A stretch of DNA of 64,000 nucleotides from positions 278,111-342,110 of the forward strand of contig JAHABL010000001.1 in the NCBI GenBank assembly GCA_018376445.1. Direction: 5' to 3'. Position 1 is the first letter of the stretch; each line of letters opens with the position of its first letter. Source of the stretch: Mycobacteriales bacterium (lineage in GTDB: Bacteria; Actinomycetota; Actinomycetes; Mycobacteriales; Mycobacteriaceae). The translations under genes and the position numbers were made by a program. Shown here in pieces: positions 20,051 through 37,119 of this stretch. Under the pieces are notes generated by a model that worked only from the letters and a program-made list of their open reading frames with translations, was not told the DNA's origin and searched no databases.

Positions 20051-20420
20051 GGGGCTGAACGGTTTCGACTGCGTATGTTGCGTCGGGAGAAGCGTGCCGG
20101 TGCAGGCTAGAGACCACCGTGAGCGTCGTAGCAAACTATTAAGCGCCGAAAATACTCAGCGCGACTACGCTCTCGCTGCCTAATAGCGACGGCTAGTCTG
20201 TGGGCCCGGAAGTGTCTCCGATCCGGTGTTTTCCCACATCATCAAGGGGGCTTACTGTGAGCTGCGGCTACGGCAGCCTACAGGACATCTAACAGTGGCT
20301 GGGTTCGCCTTCTGGACTTGTGAGCGTGTTCCAGAGAACCGAGTAATGGTGTAGTTCACTGCGCACGGAGAAGTCCTGTCAAAGCTGCGGAGGACCCGGG
20401 TTCGATTCCCGGCAGCTCCA
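20051..20420 (+). ncRNA. ssrA: tmRNA (ssrA). The predicted tag peptide is AENTQRDYALAA (tag ORF 20145..20183).
   Basis: 5' end GGGGCTGAACGGTTTCGAC and 3' T-arm/acceptor GGGTTCGATTCCCGGCAGCTCCA. Near-collinear with mycobacterial tmRNA. Tag coding region GCC GAA AAT ACT CAG CGC GAC TAC GCT CTC GCT GCC TAA. Confidence 0.9.
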
Positions 20421-20556
20421 CAATATGGAAATTCCCAGGTCATTAACGACCTGGGAATTTCTTTATCTTTGCTGGTAGTTGCATGTTTTCATCTTAACCC
20501 CTTGTGGACAGTTTGGGACACCTTTAGACTCAGTTTTGGCACGTTTTTGGCGGCAG
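20421..20556 (+). repeat. Copy 1 of the attP/integrase-proximal repeat. It includes a 13-bp-stem hairpin (AAATTCCCAGGTC..GACCTGGGAATTT, 20428..20460) that functions as a replacement terminator for the tmRNA.
   Basis: Direct comparison with 30231..30366. Confidence 0.75.
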
Positions 20557-30157: not shown

Positions 30158-30230
30158 GGGGCTATGGCGCAGCTGGTAGCGCACCACACTGGCAGTGTGG
30201 GGGTCACGGGTTCGAGTCCCGTTAGCTCCA
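30158..30230 (+). tRNA. tRNA-Ala (anticodon GGC).
   Basis: Manual fold gives a 7-bp acceptor stem with G3:U70, anticodon loop CTGGCAG and T-loop TTCGAGT. CCA is not encoded. Confidence 0.9.
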
Positions 30231-30366
30231 CAATATGGAAATTCCCAGGTCACTAATGACCTGGGTTTTTCTTTATCTCTGCTGGTAGTTGCATGTTTTT
30301 ATCCTAACCCCTTGTAGACAGTTTGGGGCACCTTTAGACTTAGTTTTGGCACATTTTTGGCACAGA
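30231..30366 (+). repeat. Copy 2 of the attP/integrase-proximal repeat. It contains the hairpin CCCAGGTC..GACCTGGG-TTTTT (30244..30270).
   Basis: See 20421..20556. Confidence 0.75.
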
Positions 30367-30381
30367 CTAGTGAGGTGCACC

Positions 30382-31626
30382 ATGGCAGCGGGAGAGTTCG
30401 GCAACACTAGACAACTCCCCTCAGGTAGGTGGCAGGCGCGCTACAGATACAGGGGGCAAGACTATAAAGCTCCCGAAACCTTCAAAACTAGGAAGATAGC
30501 CGAAGGGTGGCTCAGTCACGAAAAGAAACTTATCGACCTTAACGCATGGATACCACCACAAGAGCGCCTAGCCCTCCAGGAGAAACACCAGCAGGAGATG
30601 GAGTTAACCGTGGGGTTATGGCTCGAGCAATTCCACGACAGTCTACGAGACGCTAAAGCCTCCACCCTGCAAACATATAGGCGGACCATCACTAATAGGA
30701 TCCTTGACCCTGTTGCGCCGGGCAATGAGGTGGAGGACATTACCCGGCTTAGAGACATTCCCCTGGTGGAGTTGACGAAACAGGACGTTTACCAGTGGTG
30801 GGATGCTATTGAGCGCACCTACGACACGCCTGAGACGAATAGGAAGGCCTACCGGAGGTTGAAAGCCGCGGGGCGAGAGGCTGTGGAAAGGGAGCTTATA
30901 GGGAGTAACCCTGTGAATGTTCCCGCAGCGAATAAGAGTGTGGCGAAAGATTCACCTTATCTTCCCAAGACGGAGGAGCTGCATAAGATTCTGACGGAAG
31001 TCCCGGCACGCTATCGGCTTATTACCGCCCTCATACTGTTTCACGGCCTGCGTATCGGAGAGGCGATCGCCCTGGAGGTGGATAGTGTTGTCGCCCATGA
31101 CACCACGGGAGGGCACCGTTACGGGGTCCGGGTGAAACAGAATGCGCAGAGGATTACCCCGCCGGGGAAGTCTACATTCATGCTGGTGCAGCCTCCTAAG
31201 AGTAGGGCAGGGAATAGGGAGGTGCCGATTATGCCCGAGTTTATTCCCCTCCTGGAGGAGCACCTGGACAAGTATGTGGCCGAGTCTCCTACGGTAGTGC
31301 GTTTGTCTAAAGAATTTGGGGGCGGTACCCGCCCGGCGCAACTGCTGACGACGACGGGGGCGGGCTTAATGGTGATGGATACGTCCTACCGTAGCGTGCT
31401 GAAACGTGCCACGGAGCGGGCGGGGGTGTCGCCTTTGATTAAGCCGCATAGCGGGCGTAGGTGGTTGGTGACAACGTTGGCGGAGCACGGGGCGCACGTG
31501 AAGGAAATTTCGCGGATTCTCGGAGATGAGGACTTGGAGGTGATTATGTCTATCTATATGCAGGTGAGGGCAGAGAGAACAACAGAACTCATGGATATTG
31601 TCAGCAAGTCGGTAGCGCGGGGATAG
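30382..31626 (+). CDS. int: Tyrosine-type site-specific integrase.
   Basis: N-terminal SAM-like/arm-binding region (GRWQARYRYRG..). C-terminal catalytic residues (R..HxxR..Y: LRIGEAIALEVDSV, HSGRRWLVTTL, IMSIYMQV). Start at ATG 30382 with RBS gaggtg. The upstream ORF extension lies inside the repeat and is rejected. Confidence 0.9.
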   Translation: MAAGEFGNTRQLPSGRWQARYRYRGQDYKAPETFKTRKIAEGWLSHEKKLIDLNAWIPPQERLALQEKHQQEMELTVGLWLEQFHDSLRDAKASTLQTYRRTITNRILDPVAPGNEVEDITRLRDIPLVELTKQDVYQWWDAIERTYDTPETNRKAYRRLKAAGREAVERELIGSNPVNVPAANKSVAKDSPYLPKTEELHKILTEVPARYRLITALILFHGLRIGEAIALEVDSVVAHDTTGGHRYGVRVKQNAQRITPPGKSTFMLVQPPKSRAGNREVPIMPEFIPLLEEHLDKYVAESPTVVRLSKEFGGGTRPAQLLTTTGAGLMVMDTSYRSVLKRATERAGVSPLIKPHSGRRWLVTTLAEHGAHVKEISRILGDEDLEVIMSIYMQVRAERTTELMDIVSKSVARG

Positions 31627-31630
31627 CGGC

Positions 31631-32452
31631 ATGAAACGGCATATATGGCGTAGTGAGTGGGCCGAGGAAAACGTTGGGTTTGCAGTCATGGTTATGGACG
31701 GCGACTACCCTATGGGCCGGTTAATTATTTGTGGCACGCCTAGAGAGATACTGGTAGAGAACGCTATCTTTGTGGGGGAAAAGTGGACCGATAGGCGACC
31801 AGAAGTTTTTACTCCCCGGCGTAGAACAGAGGTCACTCGTATTCGAGCTAAAGGTGAAGACTATCGACGGCAAATTAAAGAGGAAACCAAAAAAATAGGT
31901 GACTGTGAGCAACATTTTCTCGTGTTTCCTGATTTTGAGGTGCGCAACAGAAAACTAGACCCACTCATATATAAAGTCATACAAGATGGTCACCTTGTCG
32001 TGGAGTACAGCTTTATTAAACATGTGGTTGACAGTGGGCTTATTAACCACATTTGCGATTCATGGACAGATGAAGAAAGACGGGAGTATCTGTTTTATCG
32101 AACTCTGATACATATCCTAGACGGGGACAAAATTATGGGCATTATAGAAGGTTACAAGGGGGGGAAATTTATCGTTTTCGACACTCACGATATGTCTGAA
32201 TGGTATGCCAGGTCTTCTTCTCGTACTTGGGCACCAGCTGAAGAAGATAGGGGAATGCGGGCAGAGCACGTAAAAGGTAAAGGGAGATTGTCTGGCAGTA
32301 TTCGTTTCCCCGATTTCTGTATTGAGCGTGAAGAACTCTACCAGCTAATTTCCCGGTACTTATTCCCCAGTGGTCTAACAGGCAGTGACTTTTTTAAAGT
32401 GCAGTATGACACTTTGAAAGAACTGGTTGAGCATGGACGCATGAATAAATAG
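31631..32452 (+). CDS. Hypothetical protein of 273 aa encoded by a markedly low-GC gene. It is orphan cargo between int and xis.
   Basis: Clean ORF, AT-rich relative to its flanks. No recognisable motif. Confidence 0.6.
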   Translation: MKRHIWRSEWAEENVGFAVMVMDGDYPMGRLIICGTPREILVENAIFVGEKWTDRRPEVFTPRRRTEVTRIRAKGEDYRRQIKEETKKIGDCEQHFLVFPDFEVRNRKLDPLIYKVIQDGHLVVEYSFIKHVVDSGLINHICDSWTDEERREYLFYRTLIHILDGDKIMGIIEGYKGGKFIVFDTHDMSEWYARSSSRTWAPAEEDRGMRAEHVKGKGRLSGSIRFPDFCIEREELYQLISRYLFPSGLTGSDFFKVQYDTLKELVEHGRMNK

Positions 32453-32679: not shown

Positions 32680-32874
32680 ATGTCTACTCCAACTCGCCAC
32701 TATGTTTCTATCCGTGAAGCCGCTGACTACTGGTCTGTCTCCACGAAAACGATTCGCCGGTGCATTAACCGGGGAGAACTCACAGGCTACTACCCCTGTG
32801 GTAGGACTCTACGCCTCGATCTCAATGAGCTAGAGGCAATTGCACAGGCTAACGCCACTCGTAAGGTGGCGTAA
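32680..32874 (+). CDS. xis: Excisionase / AlpA-like helix-turn-helix DNA-binding protein.
   Basis: 64 aa. YVSIREAADYWSVSTKTIRRCINRGEL is a typical MerR/Xis HTH. Confidence 0.7.
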   Translation: MSTPTRHYVSIREAADYWSVSTKTIRRCINRGELTGYYPCGRTLRLDLNELEAIAQANATRKVA

Positions 32875-32878
32875 GGGC

Positions 32879-33463
32879 ATGGAGACAAAAGAATACCCCG
32901 CCGTAAGCGGGGCACCTTCGAGCACTCTTCAATCATACCCGGTAGGCGTAACAGAAACTGATACTGCTCCTGCTACCGGTATCCTTGCCGTCAGACCACA
33001 GCTAGACACAGTTTTCTTGACTGCTCTTCTCCATGCGGGGAACCGGGGGAAAACTGTTCTGGAACATGTAGACGCTACAGACTTCCATAACCCGGTCTAC
33101 GGTGACCTGTACGAGAGAATAAAGGCCGTCGCCGCTACAGGTGACCTCACGCACCTACGAGTGTGGGGCACGCTCACTGCAACCCGCTGGACTGAGGACT
33201 CTTACTGGCATGGACGAGTCCTAAACCTTGTTGCGCCGGGCAGTGGCGGCTATGAGGATATCGCACTCGCTGCTGCTCAGCTGGTGCAAGGCTCACTGCG
33301 TCACCGTGTGTTTAATCTAGGCGTGGAGTTGCGACAGGCGGCCTGTGAGAGGTCGCTAGAGGAACTTATGGTGTTCCTTGCTGACTCTGCCCGCATGGAG
33401 ATGATTCGTGCGACTGTGGCGCGTCTAGAGACCCTTACAGCGCTTACAGGGGGTGCAAAGTAA
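32879..33463 (+). CDS. Protein resembling the DnaB helicase N-terminal domain, probably a replication-initiation accessory.
   Basis: DTVFLTALLHAGNRGKTVLEHVDATDFHNPVYGDLYERI resembles the DnaB N-terminal domain. Translationally coupled to the next gene (ATGA overlap at 33463). Confidence 0.5.
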   Translation: METKEYPAVSGAPSSTLQSYPVGVTETDTAPATGILAVRPQLDTVFLTALLHAGNRGKTVLEHVDATDFHNPVYGDLYERIKAVAATGDLTHLRVWGTLTATRWTEDSYWHGRVLNLVAPGSGGYEDIALAAAQLVQGSLRHRVFNLGVELRQAACERSLEELMVFLADSARMEMIRATVARLETLTALTGGAK

Positions 33464-34950
33464 TGACTACCCCCGATACCACTACCGACACCACAGAGAC
33501 GCGGAGAAGCTGCCTTGTGAGGGCTACTGATATGGCACTGCCTAAACGCCGCAAGTGGATAGTGCCAGGACTATTGCCCCTCGGTTGCCTTGTGTTCCTA
33601 GCTGGTGATGAGGGCATTGGCAAAAGTACTTTCGGGCTACACCTTGCAAGTGTCATCACCAGTGGCAAAGGTGACACCGGTCTCAAGATTCCCGCCGGAA
33701 ACGCCCGGCGCGTATATCTCTACAGCACAGAAGATAATTGGGGTGACACTACTAGTCCGGCGCTCAAAGCAATGGGCTGTGATTTTGAAAATCTCTCACT
33801 CTTTTTCGACGACACAGACGGCACGTCTTATCCGAGCTTAGGGGCCAACGTCATCAAAGATATGTACGAAGACTCTGAGTGTTATGGTGCCCCGGCACTG
33901 ATCATTGTGGATAACTTTATTGACACTCTCCCCGCCAATGTTCAGCAGAGTAAACCCGAGCAGTTGAGGAGTGTTCTAAAACAATGGGTCAAGATAGCGA
34001 AACGGCTTAATGCCACTGTGTTGTGTCTTCATCACACGAACAGGTCAGGGTCTGACAATAGCCGCGACCAGTGGGCGGGCAGCAGCGAATACCGTAAAGC
34101 TGCCCGTGTTGCTCTGATGGCTAAAGACAATGAGGACGGCACCTTTACCGTAGGCGTGGATAAGTGCAATCTGTCACCAGAGAGACGCGCCGTCATCATG
34201 AAGAACATGTCCACTTCCACACCCTTGCTCTATGAGGGAGAAGAGAAACCCGAAACTGTAGAGTCCCACACAGTTGACTATGTGGGAGAGTCTGACAGGT
34301 CCATTGCTGAGCTTGTGGAAGATAAAGCCGATGACGATACGGGCGGGGATGAAAGGACTGAGACTCTCAGAGCCTTCCTTCTCTCTCTCAGTGCCCATAG
34401 TGGAAGTGCCACTCGTAGGGAATTGTGTAATGGCCTCAAGGACGAGGGCTATTCCGACAGGAAGATAAAACAAGCTATCAAGACGGCTAAGAGTCGCCAT
34501 TTCGTTGACTCGGACAGGTCAGGGTTTCAGGGTGAAACAACATTCGCTCTCACAGTCGCAGGGCGTGACATTCTCCAAAATGTCCACTTGGCTGCCCAAA
34601 ATGGTCACCAAAATGTCCAAAATAAAACAGCAGGTCAGCCCCAAAATGTCCAAAATGTCCAACATGTTCACCCCTATAGGGTGACTAAGGGCAATGCGGC
34701 GGCAAAAAAGTCCCCCGGCACTGTCTCACAGGGCAGTGATTCTGGGGCTCTCCGCACTTGGCTAGTAGATGGTCTGAGTGTTGAGCAGTCGCAGGGCGTG
34801 GAGTCTCTCTATGGGCAACTGCCCCGCTCTCTCCGTGACTCTCATAGCCGGGACAGTGTGAAGGAAGTTTTGGACTCCATGGTTGAGAAAGGCAATGTGG
34901 TGAAGGACTCTCACGGCCGTTATCTGAAGGCGGGTGAAACTTTGTTTTAG
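33463..34950 (+). CDS. RepA-like RecA-fold ATPase (AAA_25 / primase-helicase-associated) replication protein with a C-terminal wHTH-like region.
   Basis: Walker A GDEGIGKST. Walker B ALIIVDNFID. LCLHHTNRSG. A C-terminal QNVQ-rich segment is encoded by the iterons. Confidence 0.7.
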   Translation: MTTPDTTTDTTETRRSCLVRATDMALPKRRKWIVPGLLPLGCLVFLAGDEGIGKSTFGLHLASVITSGKGDTGLKIPAGNARRVYLYSTEDNWGDTTSPALKAMGCDFENLSLFFDDTDGTSYPSLGANVIKDMYEDSECYGAPALIIVDNFIDTLPANVQQSKPEQLRSVLKQWVKIAKRLNATVLCLHHTNRSGSDNSRDQWAGSSEYRKAARVALMAKDNEDGTFTVGVDKCNLSPERRAVIMKNMSTSTPLLYEGEEKPETVESHTVDYVGESDRSIAELVEDKADDDTGGDERTETLRAFLLSLSAHSGSATRRELCNGLKDEGYSDRKIKQAIKTAKSRHFVDSDRSGFQGETTFALTVAGRDILQNVHLAAQNGHQNVQNKTAGQPQNVQNVQHVHPYRVTKGNAAAKKSPGTVSQGSDSGALRTWLVDGLSVEQSQGVESLYGQLPRSLRDSHSRDSVKEVLDSMVEKGNVVKDSHGRYLKAGETLF

Positions 34951-35045
34951 GGCTATGTAAGTGAACAAGTTGGACATTTTGGACATGTTGGCCGTGACCT
35001 GCTGTTTTACTGTGACCATTTTGGTGGACATTTTGTGGACATTTT
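34566..35045. repeat. Iteron array. Four direct copies of CAAAATGTCCA lie at 34566-34670, within the 3' end of the rep gene. At least three inverted copies of TGGACATTTTG lie at 34966-35045, just past the rep stop. This is a probable origin of replication or rep-binding site.
   Basis: Repeats read directly from the sequence in both orientations, about 290 bp apart. Confidence 0.6.
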
Positions 35046-35211
35046 GGGCGGCTTCAGTGTTGAAATGGCCTAATGGTTAAGAAGAGAGAGACCCCTAGGT
35101 GTATTCCCGGGGGTCTCTTTCTGTGTGCCTGTTGCGCCGGGCAGGTGGTGGAGGTTGAGGTGAGGTCAGGACTTTACCCCGAAATCGGGGAAAACGTTCC
35201 CCCTGAGTGGT

Positions 35212-35345
35212 GAGGTGGTGTTCCGCCACCCCATGGGCGCAAGGAGGTGGTGTTCTGCCACCCCCCTAGTGGGTGCAGGGGTGCGGTATTCCGCCGCCCC
35301 CTTATTTTTAGCGAGGTGAAAGGGGGTCGGAATTTGCGACACCCT
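35212..35345. repeat. Three to four tandem degenerate GC-rich palindromic repeats of about 22 bp (GGTGGTGTTCCGCCACCCC-like) in an 880-bp non-coding stretch of the island.
   Basis: 35212-35232, 35254-35275 and 35279-35302, with a weaker copy at 35323-35345. Each can form a GGTGG/CCACC hairpin. Confidence 0.5.
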
Positions 35346-35982
35346 TTATGGGAGCCGTTTTAAGCCGCTTTAGGGATACTCCATGAGTGGAGTGGCGCGG
35401 GAGGTGGGAAAAGTGTCCGAGAATTGATTTGAGGGCCAAATAGAGGGGTGCAGACGATGGAATAATGGAGTGCTATCCCATCTATGCGGGTAGCTGGTGG
35501 GGTATGGCCTAAAAATCACCAGAAACACACACTCGGACCACTTCACGCCGGTTAGTCGTCCTTTCCCCCCGCACTGGGTAGGGGGGTATTCCGTATCTAG
35601 GCCATTTCCTCATAGATGCCCCTGAGAGCCACGTAGAGGAGCAAATACATTTGCCTAGGCAAATCACACATAGAACGAAGAGAAATAGCCTTAAAAACGT
35701 TTATAGAGCCTGAAATATTACCCGGGGGGGGTAGAGCTGCTAAGCCCATGGGATGCTTGGGGTGTGGGGTGGGGGTGGTCCCCGTGGGGTGTGTGCTGTA
35801 TCCGCTATAGAAACCACGTCTGCTAGGGAAACTGCTAAACCTGTACTCAACCAAAGCGCCTAGGCCATACGGGCTTATGTGGTGTGGGGGCGGGGGTAGT
35901 GGCCCTGGTGACGGATGGAGTAAACCCCCACCACTACAGGTAAGCAGCAGCAGGGGTTTAATCTTTGGTGTGGATACTATCG

Positions 35983-36946: not shown

Positions 36947-36965
36947 GAGCCCCGTTAGCTCCACA
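36947..36965 (+). repeat. attR, a direct repeat of the tRNA-Ala 3' end.
   Basis: GAGCCCCGTTAGCTCCACA versus tRNA 30214..30232 GAGTCCCGTTAGCTCCACA. Confidence 0.8.
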
Positions 36966-36971
36966 GAGTAT

Positions 36972-37004
36972 AAAACCCCTGGTCAGAAATGACCAGGGGT
37001 TTTG
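36972..37004 (+). terminator. Probable original terminator of tRNA-Ala, now displaced to lie after attR.
   Basis: AAAACCCCTGGTC-AGAAAT-GACCAGGGGTTTT. Confidence 0.6.
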
Positions 37005-37119
37005 TTTATTTTCCTGCTTCATTACATAGTTTTGCGCACTCCCGTCACCTCTCATGAGCACCATTGTGAGGCACAATACGATGTAAATTGTGGAATTTTG
37101 GCGAAAATTGGGCGTTAGG

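Follow-up and report, generated by a model that had tools for sequence, protein, structure and literature searches.

The Reps of Staphylococcus aureus pathogenicity islands (SaPIs) are placed among the AAA+ helicases with 3'-5' polarity and bind iterons through a C-terminal winged helix; the iterons are opposed on each side and lie beside rep (PMC9371898). The origins of phage-inducible chromosomal islands (PICIs) lie immediately 3' of rep (PMC6092414), and in SaPI and PICI origins the iterons flank an AT-rich centre (PMC9371898, PMC6092414). The lambdoid origin lies in the middle of gene O, where extra iterons add residues to the O protein (PMC7466680). Here, we describe a comparable arrangement in a 64-kb stretch of DNA (contig JAHABL010000001.1 of assembly GCA_018376445.1, positions 278,111 to 342,110 of the forward strand), called the window below and numbered from its first letter. 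The window contains a mobile island of ~6.7 kb, integrated at the 3' end of a tRNA-Ala(GGC) gene of Lawsonella (an uncultured Lawsonella sp., close to L. clevelandensis), a skin bacterium. Two mirror-image arrays of short repeats are located in and directly after the rep gene of the island. The arrays are probably the island's replication origin, bound by the first winged helix (wH1) of the Rep protein. Judged by where the repeats lie across the family and by how their type matches wH1, the best reading of the sequence comparisons is that the repeats are Rep-binding iterons of a bipartite, mirrored origin.

Mirrored repeat arrays and the Rep protein

The repeat is an 11-mer, CAAAATGTCCA, with seven exact copies and one copy with a single mismatch within 34576-35046. 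Four exact copies are on the + strand (34576, 34609, 34642 and 34651) and three on the - strand (34971, 35025 and 35036), where the one-mismatch copy is positioned at 34980. A sequence-only reading of this DNA had proposed that four direct copies are embedded in the last 100 codons of rep and that at least three inverted copies lie within 100 bp after its stop codon. The four direct copies are present, within the last ~125 codons of the gene, and the inverted copies are found at the expected distance. No further exact copy occurs anywhere in the 64-kb window, an outcome that favours that reading. When one mismatch is allowed, ten copies are observed in the window versus 0.82 +/- 0.93 expected (maximum 4, 100 shuffles), and eight of the ten are concentrated in 471 bp. 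The repeat feature is real and non-random.

The motif was extended to the 12-mer CCAAAATGTCCA, with up to two mismatches allowed, which revealed degenerate copies at mirrored positions; the site at 34962 (-), with three mismatches to CCAAAATGTCCA, was read from the sequence. The resulting six plus six sites, twelve in 473 bp, form two mirror-image arrays. The arrays, the gene and the predicted domains of its product are as follows:

33463-34950, + strand: rep, 495 codons, with the stop codon at 34948-34950
34575-34670, + strand: putative in-gene iteron array, six CCAAAATGTCCA-type sites
34671-34961, + strand: spacer between the arrays, coding for the remainder of the linker and the second winged helix (wH2), and including the rep stop codon
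34962-35047, - strand: putative downstream inverted iteron array, six sites, non-coding
Residues ~20-276 of Rep: predicted superfamily 4 (SF4) ATPase, AAA_25/RecA fold, with Walker motifs
Residues 295-363, coded by 34345-34551, + strand: predicted winged helix wH1, predicted local distance difference test (pLDDT) score ~95
Residues 365-380: helix in the predicted structure
Residues ~380-423: predicted disordered linker, pLDDT <50
Residues 426-489, coded by 34738-34929, + strand: predicted winged helix wH2, pLDDT 86-93

The sites of the + array start at 34575, 34596 (two mismatches), 34608, 34641, 34650 and 34659 (two mismatches), with spacings of 21/12/33/9/9. Those of the - array, given in + coordinates, are positioned at 34962 (three mismatches), 34971, 34980 (one), 35013 (two), 35025 (one) and 35036, with spacings of 9/9/33/12/11, and lie 12-97 nucleotides (nt) past the rep stop codon. 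The whole feature is a large imperfect inverted repeat (I1) with 75-nt arms at 34597-34671 and 34961-35035, which are 85% complementary and separated by 289 nt. A single strand of the array region would fold as a long hairpin (z = -8.1). The + array occupies rep codons 372-403 and encodes LQNVHLAAQNGHQNVQNKTAGQPQNVQNVQHVH, a run of QNV repeats that matches the QNVQ-repeat peptide of the sequence-only reading. An exact 15-nt direct repeat, CAGTCGCAGGGCGTG, is located before the + array (34553-34567) and in the spacer (34786-34800), and is also found in the relatives L001 and L004, introduced below.

The ATPase domain of Rep belongs to Pfam family AAA_25 (PF13481, E 1.9e-24, 86.8 bits versus a cut-off of 27). 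In a profile search with Rep and its homologues, the RepA helicase of plasmid RSF1010 was matched at E 9.3e-12 (1g8y), and the AlphaFold model of the N-terminal 276 residues is matched by Foldseek to T7 gp4, DnaB, Twinkle, RadA and RepA. By profile and predicted fold, Rep is an RSF1010-RepA/DnaB-like helicase of the RecA-fold SF4 type and a candidate initiator, which agrees with the earlier description of a RepA-like gene in an island. The public name of the protein is 'AAA family ATPase', nothing more specific. Pfam gave no Rep_3 match in Rep, for the C-terminal fragment even at E <= 10, and no primase or superfamily 3 (SF3) domain was found by Pfam, PHROGs or fold search. Searches of deposited phages and plasmids gave no characterised relative; the only matches are 'DNA primase/helicase' or 'AAA family ATPase' proteins of 21-29% identity.

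The C-terminal fragment of Rep resembles PadR/MarR-type winged-helix DNA binders in Foldseek (target template-modelling score 0.6-0.74, E ~2e-3 to 2e-2). We propose, from the comparisons below, that wH1 is the iteron-recognition domain. Its putative recognition-helix signature is GYSDRKIKQAIK in the window Rep versus GFSKDQVKR and GISERTLQRA elsewhere. wH2 is a clade-specific C-terminal tail, replaced by a CxxC-containing tail in the relatives L006 and L008. The + array starts 21-24 nt past the wH1-coding segment, and the predicted order of wH1, helix, linker and wH2 therefore places its codons at the end of the helix and the start of the disordered linker, between folded domains.

The spacer is 33-47% AT over most of its length, versus 55-62% for the arrays, and its length is not conserved: the three element types of Lawsonella have spacers of 289, ~460 and ~1060 bp. 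An AT-rich melting region between the arrays, about 300 bp across in the sequence-only reading, is rejected on this composition and variable length, and since the spacer also codes for the folded wH2.

Repeats and wH1 in related elements

Homologues of Rep are scarce, with 18 matches among 5.8 billion proteins, and the contigs that encode them share the island architecture. Four of these Lawsonella relatives are used here:

L001: Rep 94% identical (92-95%), repeat CCAAAATGTCCA, array positions as in the window
L004: Rep 83% identical, repeat CCAAAATGTCCA, array positions as in the window
L006: Rep 51% identical, repeat CCAATTCTGCCA, six + copies at -354 to -280 from the rep stop, spaced 11/11/34/9/9, and a mirrored set at +784 to +858
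L008: Rep 46% identical, repeat TTTTGCCGG, in-gene spacing 11/11/33/9/9, and a mirrored set at +211 to +284

In the layout common to these Lawsonella islands, each array has one triplet of sites at ~11-bp intervals and one at 9-bp intervals, separated by a gap of ~33 bp, and the two arrays mirror each other with the 9-bp triplets innermost. Close homologues carry the same repeats, as the sequence-only reading required of related islands. In L006 and L008 both arrays switch to another repeat together. The encoded peptide is replaced as well, so that the peptides over the in-gene arrays of divergent elements are unrelated (QNV, NSA or VLP types), and the layout is kept. This concerted change, together with the survival of the layout, speaks for selection at the DNA level, exerted by a single protein that binds both arrays. 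The degenerate site at 34962 is kept in L001 and L004. The outermost pair of the - array is spaced by 11 bp in the window versus 21 bp in L001, a 10-bp indel that keeps the helical phase.

The mosaic structure of these elements bears on which protein this is. L001 has an integrase of 47% and an HTH_17 protein of 40% identity to those of the window and occupies another chromosomal site, yet has the same Rep and iterons. Integrase arm-type or Xis sites were considered and are ruled out by this pairing. The product of the 194-codon gene upstream of rep (p194) is ruled out as the specificity determinant, since its identity is 61% in L004 despite the shared iterons and 63% in L006, whose iterons differ. 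L006 occupies the same chromosomal site as L001. Its rep gene retains 51-69% nucleotide identity over most of nt 91-900; from ~nt 900, the start of wH1, identity falls to the random level (33-41%), and this element has new iterons.

When representative genomes were scanned, 71 distant relatives of Rep, at ~30% identity, were found in Mycobacteriales, Micrococcales and other Actinomycetota. In 66 loci of ~11 kb each, we searched without positional bias for the densest cluster of any 8-mer. A cluster of at least four copies is present in 44 of the 66 loci, and 34 of these 44 clusters are positioned between about -420 and +310 nt relative to the rep stop codon. The repeats are clade-specific (AGGGAGC, GGCACAA, GTCGCGCCA, CGAAGGTGGC, ACCTTTCCA and others), mostly in both orientations, and often number ~11-12 per locus.

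Across 33 loci, the densest array starts a median of 8 nt past the wH1-coding end, within -20 to +130 nt of it in 25 loci. The stop codon is located 3-438 nt past the same point, at most 60 nt in 11 loci and at least 280 nt in 19. Since the array start is steady and the stop codon scattered, the array is anchored to the end of the wH1-coding segment and not to the stop. It lies inside the open reading frame (ORF) in 22 of the 33 loci and wholly after the stop codon in the other 11. By sequence comparison, short Reps end before the array, whereas in long Reps the ORF continues across it into a further domain, which is wH2 in the clade of the window and the CxxC tail in L006 and L008. The overlap of putative binding sites with coding sequence, regarded as unusual by the sequence-only reading, is thus the majority state in this family and has a precedent in lambda gene O (PMC7466680).

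When iterons are sorted into discrete classes, the nearest neighbour by wH1 shares the iteron class in 21 of 24 cases, and the nearest neighbour by ATPase in 16 of 24. Two of the three wH1 misses pair near-identical iterons, TGGCGC[A/G]AC. The locus L018 is, judged by its sequence, a natural domain swap: its ATPase is 85-87% identical to proteins of the GGCACAA class, its wH1 is 63-69% identical to those of the AGGGAGC class, and its iteron is AGGGAGC. Together, these comparisons suggest that the repeat type follows wH1, rather than the ATPase, the integrase or the Xis-like genes.

The element L010 (contig ERR8529749_1336, 708-10766) encodes a 33%-identical Rep with an N-terminal extension, located between an integrase/HTH module and genes for TerL, portal and major capsid proteins. 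Its twelve iterons, CAGTC[G/C]CGCCA, are present in both orientations and lie wholly within the gene. From this gene content, the Rep/iteron system therefore appears to serve capsid-encoding phage-like elements as well. The iteron 23-mer was not found in IMG/VR, which contains just two distant Rep relatives. A single scan of Joint Genome Institute (JGI) metagenomes returned seven contigs in which one or two copies occur; these contigs lack homology to the island, and the matches are due to chance.

The candidate origin and rival explanations

We propose the following mechanism. The integrase and the HTH_17 Xis-like protein would excise the island as a 6.7-kb circle. Through wH1, Rep monomers would bind to all six sites of an array, and each array would nucleate one hexamer; the ~12 sites per element in the Lawsonella clade fit two hexamers. 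The two hexamers would be loaded in opposite orientations, because the arrays mirror each other, and would unwind the DNA bidirectionally, as modelled for SaPI Reps. Melting would most likely start at or beside the inner triplets, where sites overlap at 9-bp spacing, and is unlikely to extend across the entire spacer. In the clade of the window the ORF reads through the + array, so the iterons would be translated as a disordered linker leading to wH2. The sequences show the repeats with their architecture and conservation, and their change in step with wH1, and fold predictions support the domain assignments. From these and from the place of the arrays across the family, the earlier assignment of the repeats to an island origin is the best reading; we infer the binding itself, the templating of hexamers, the site of melting and replication.

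Several observations weigh against this proposal. There is no clear AT-rich unwinding element: the best nearby 40-mer is a patch around the stop codon, on the inner edge of the - array (34941-34980, 68% AT), which ranks 11th among the least stable 40-mers of the island. The idea of one hexamer per array leans on counts in which degenerate sites are included. No primase gene is recognisable in the island. The circular attP form was not seen, the state being integrated in all nine of the nine contigs that encode the exact Rep. In a global partial Mantel test, iteron similarity is only weakly associated with wH1 when the ATPase is controlled for (r 0.11, p ~0.05). We attribute this to the noisy similarity measure, the overlap of position weight matrices, which has a high background, and the discrete classes with the nearest-neighbour test were used in its place. 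Furthermore, p75 and p208, the two genes beyond the non-coding region that follows rep, vary in step with the iterons among Lawsonella elements. Their products are 97-99% identical where the iterons match, and in L006 p75 is absent and p208 is 29% identical. The two proteins are therefore excluded as binders by the wider family comparison only, and not within the Lawsonella clade.

The main rival, although unlikely, is an origin formed by a single array, with the second array serving as a control site or enhancer that acts in cis and is bound by the same Rep, through handcuffing or, at a distance, in the manner of crr, the second cis element of phage P4; such an arrangement is not strictly exclusive of a bipartite origin. 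Handcuffing limits copy number in iteron plasmids, and the iteron control loci of plasmids P1 and F, as well as the ori and crr sites of P4, are precedents. The unequal distances between the arrays of the three element types suit looping better than a fixed melting bubble, and the - array of L006 is located past both a conserved non-coding block and the terminator-like hairpin of rep. Many distant relatives pack both orientations into one cluster of 100-250 bp, so that the ancestral origin may have been one compact site. However, the arrays in the window are near-perfect mirrors with equal numbers and spacing of sites, which suggests equivalent roles, and the mirror layout persists in three element types with differing iterons.

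The co-variation of p75 and p208 with the iteron type would also suit a non-replicative role, in which Rep or a different protein of the island, for example p208 or p75, binds the repeats for autoregulation or attenuation of rep, for partition or for packaging recognition. A rep mRNA that reaches the terminator at 35083-35122 would hold both arms of the inverted repeat and could form a long duplex. In L006, however, the - array follows the terminator-like hairpin, so the duplex is not conserved. The sites are positioned at the 3' end of the gene rather than at a promoter, no ParA/ParB or terminase gene was found among the island genes (Pfam, PHROGs, PADLOC and NCBIfam), the arrays are anchored to the wH1-coding end in 33 loci with unrelated neighbouring genes, and the iteron class tracks wH1. 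We consider a non-replicative role improbable. Least likely is that the repeats have no function as DNA, and are a QNVQ peptide repeat in a low-complexity linker accompanied by a chance or recent duplication-inversion downstream. The + array does code for a low-complexity disordered segment, and close relatives are ~95% identical in the array region, so conservation among them alone proves little. Nevertheless, the non-coding - array still holds the motif, divergent elements with unrelated peptides keep the DNA architecture and switch both arrays together, and the whole array is located after the stop codon in 11 of 33 loci.

The reading of the arrays as a mirrored, Rep-bound origin provides a concrete candidate origin and initiator for a small Lawsonella island. 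Lawsonella, an actinobacterium of human skin, is common but hard to work with, and to our knowledge no replicons or genetic tools have been described for it; the ~1.7-kb rep-ori cassette could seed a shuttle vector. The reading also proposes a function for 'AAA family ATPase' proteins in many Mycobacteriales and Micrococcales islands, together with a rule for finding their origins, namely to inspect the DNA directly downstream of the wH1-coding segment. The principle of Rep-specific iterons beside or inside rep is already well known, and the setting is new. More tentatively, we speculate that these proteins are an undescribed class of self-loading SF4 helicase-initiators across Actinomycetota, with two mirrored sets of six iterons and one hexamer per set. 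The origin would be physically joined to the sequence that encodes the specificity domain, and wH1 and the iterons would move and recombine together as a portable 'specificity cassette'. The ORF is proposed either to stop before the array or to read through it into new C-terminal domains. If this were true, the cassette would account for the diversification of co-resident islands, satellites and prophages into non-interfering replication groups. The family provides a natural domain-swap series, from which a recognition code between winged helix and iteron could be read.

Island content and comparison with known systems

The remaining features of the island are as follows:

30158-30231, + strand: tRNA-Ala(GGC), left island boundary and sole Rfam match
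30214-30232, + strand: attL core at the left island boundary, in direct-repeat pair D1
30382-31626, + strand: tyrosine integrase gene
31631-32452, + strand: gene for a 273-amino-acid (aa) protein, in a variable cargo slot between the integrase and HTH_17 genes
32680-32874, + strand: gene for an HTH_17 (AlpA/Xis-like) protein
32879-33463, + strand: p194, 194-aa gene, whose stop codon overlaps the start of rep
35083-35122, + strand: hairpin followed by TTTCT, AGAGAGAGACCCC...GGGGTCTCTTTCT, inverted repeat I22, likely rep terminator
36947-36965, + strand: attR, a displaced copy of the tRNA 3' end, right island boundary

The genes are arranged in the order integrase, 273-aa gene, HTH_17 gene, p194, rep, ~930 bp without ORFs, p75 and p208, of which the last two point leftward. 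The direct repeat D1 pairs 36947-37009 with 30214-30276 (63 nt, 78% identical), and exact sequence matches of the NrdF and NadE proteins encoded in the flanks of the island identify the host as Lawsonella. Skin metagenome runs with the island include SRR31487596, SRR29183808 and SRR31758120. The 273-aa gene has no match in Pfam, PHROGs, PADLOC or NCBIfam and is replaced by unrelated genes of 162-181 aa in the sister islands L001, L005 and L083; the accessory genes as a whole had zero matches in PADLOC and NCBIfam. The p194 protein weakly matches, below the threshold, the N-terminal domain of DnaB (PF00772, E 0.096, 13 bits), and is possibly a DnaB-N-terminal-like accessory protein of the replication module. 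If the match were true, p194 and Rep together would look like a DnaB in two parts, and p194 could bring in the primase of the host, as the island has no primase gene.

The hairpin at 35083-35122 is 100% conserved in L001. A promoter and terminator scan of the island gave no promoter-like site and did not call this hairpin. A second terminator hairpin comes after the displaced tRNA 3' end at the right boundary (36947-37009). A 27-nt motif (…CCTTGTTGCGCCGGGCA…) occurs in three copies that are 74-85% identical, in the integrase gene (30701-30727), in p194 (33219-33245) and just past the rep terminator (35120-35146), and may be due to chance.

The ORF-free region after rep (35050-35980) is composed of blocks that are shuffled between element types; in the Rfam scan of the island, neither it nor the repeats matched a family. 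The block 35600-35788 is 88% identical to L006 7584-7769, though the Rep there is 51% identical. It includes the second least stable 40-mer of the island (35681-35720), followed by a G8 run, and the metagenome contigs L085, L086 and L089 end at 35715-35764. Candidate functions of the region are a promoter of p75 and p208, a packaging site or an unwinding element. The 335-bp segment 35152-35486 is present in the window-type islands L082-L090, missing from the otherwise collinear L001 and L004, and behaves, by this distribution, as an insertable module. It carries three hairpin-forming repeats GAGGTGGTGTTCCGCCACCCC (35212-35300), and shares the motifs GCCGTTTTAAGCC, GAATTGATTTGAGGG and GTGCAGAYGATGG...CCATCTATG with L006 (7954-8094) and in part with L008. 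An 82-bp block with the hairpin CCCCCCGCACTGGGTAGGGGGG (35506-35587) is inverted in L006 (8332-8413), where it adjoins the outer edge of the - iteron array. Outside the island, ~10 kb upstream, a transfer-messenger RNA (tmRNA) gene with the tag peptide AENTQRDYALAA is located at 20051-20421, and GC content drops to 47% in the adjacent segment 21001-22000.

The best sequence-level structural relative of the Rep ATPase domain is RSF1010 RepA (1g8y / 1nlf). RepA has neither a DNA-binding winged helix nor a role in origin recognition, and RepC binds the iterons of RSF1010; in the window Rep, in contrast, helicase and origin recognition appear to be fused. The alpha protein of phage P4 combines a primase and an SF3 helicase with a C-terminal winged-helix origin-binding domain, and the P4 ori and crr sites, which are kilobases apart and contain the same short repeat, both act in cis. 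The window system resembles that of P4 as a satellite replicon with a helicase-initiator, a C-terminal winged helix and two separated sets of repeats; Rep, however, lacks primase and SF3 domains, and no homology to P4 was detected. The Rep_3 initiators pi, RepE, pPS10 RepA and TrfA likewise have Rep-specific arrays of direct repeats and two winged-helix domains. Unlike the window Rep, which has no Rep_3 match in Pfam, they have no helicase domain and depend on host DnaA and DnaB, and their iterons are 17-22 bp long.

The similarity to the lambdoid origin is one of layout, without homology. Iterons are positioned in the initiator's own ORF and translated into a segment dispensable for DNA binding (PMC7466680), as would be expected for codons 372-403 between wH1 and wH2. 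The lambda O protein, however, is no helicase, relies on P to recruit DnaB and binds DNA with an N-terminal domain, and the lambda origin has a single in-gene array followed by an AT-rich tract, with no mirrored second array.

The sequence-only reading had likened the arrays to a SaPI/PICI origin, a comparison that holds only as an analogy. The island encodes no repressor, terS, capsid, capsid-remodelling or interference gene recognisable in Pfam, PHROGs, PADLOC or NCBIfam, and measures only 6.7 kb. Its Rep is of the RecA-fold SF4 type (AAA_25) rather than the AAA+ 3'-5' type, one array is located inside rep, the iterons are 11-12 bp long versus 5-6 bp, and the spacer is GC-rich, coding and of variable length, in place of an AT-rich centre. 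From the SaPI/PICI gene set, which comprises integrase, master repressor, xis, pri-rep and packaging or interference genes and goes with induction by a helper phage, the island has an integrase, an HTH_17 Xis-like gene and rep. It shares with SaPIs and PICIs the form of a small integrase-bearing island, the order of Xis-like gene, replication genes and origin, a helicase-initiator with a C-terminal winged helix, and short opposed groups of iterons with island-specific sequences beside the 3' end of rep (PMC9371898, PMC6092414). Judged by this analogy, the island resembles SaPIs and PICIs in its logic, rather than by membership in their family.

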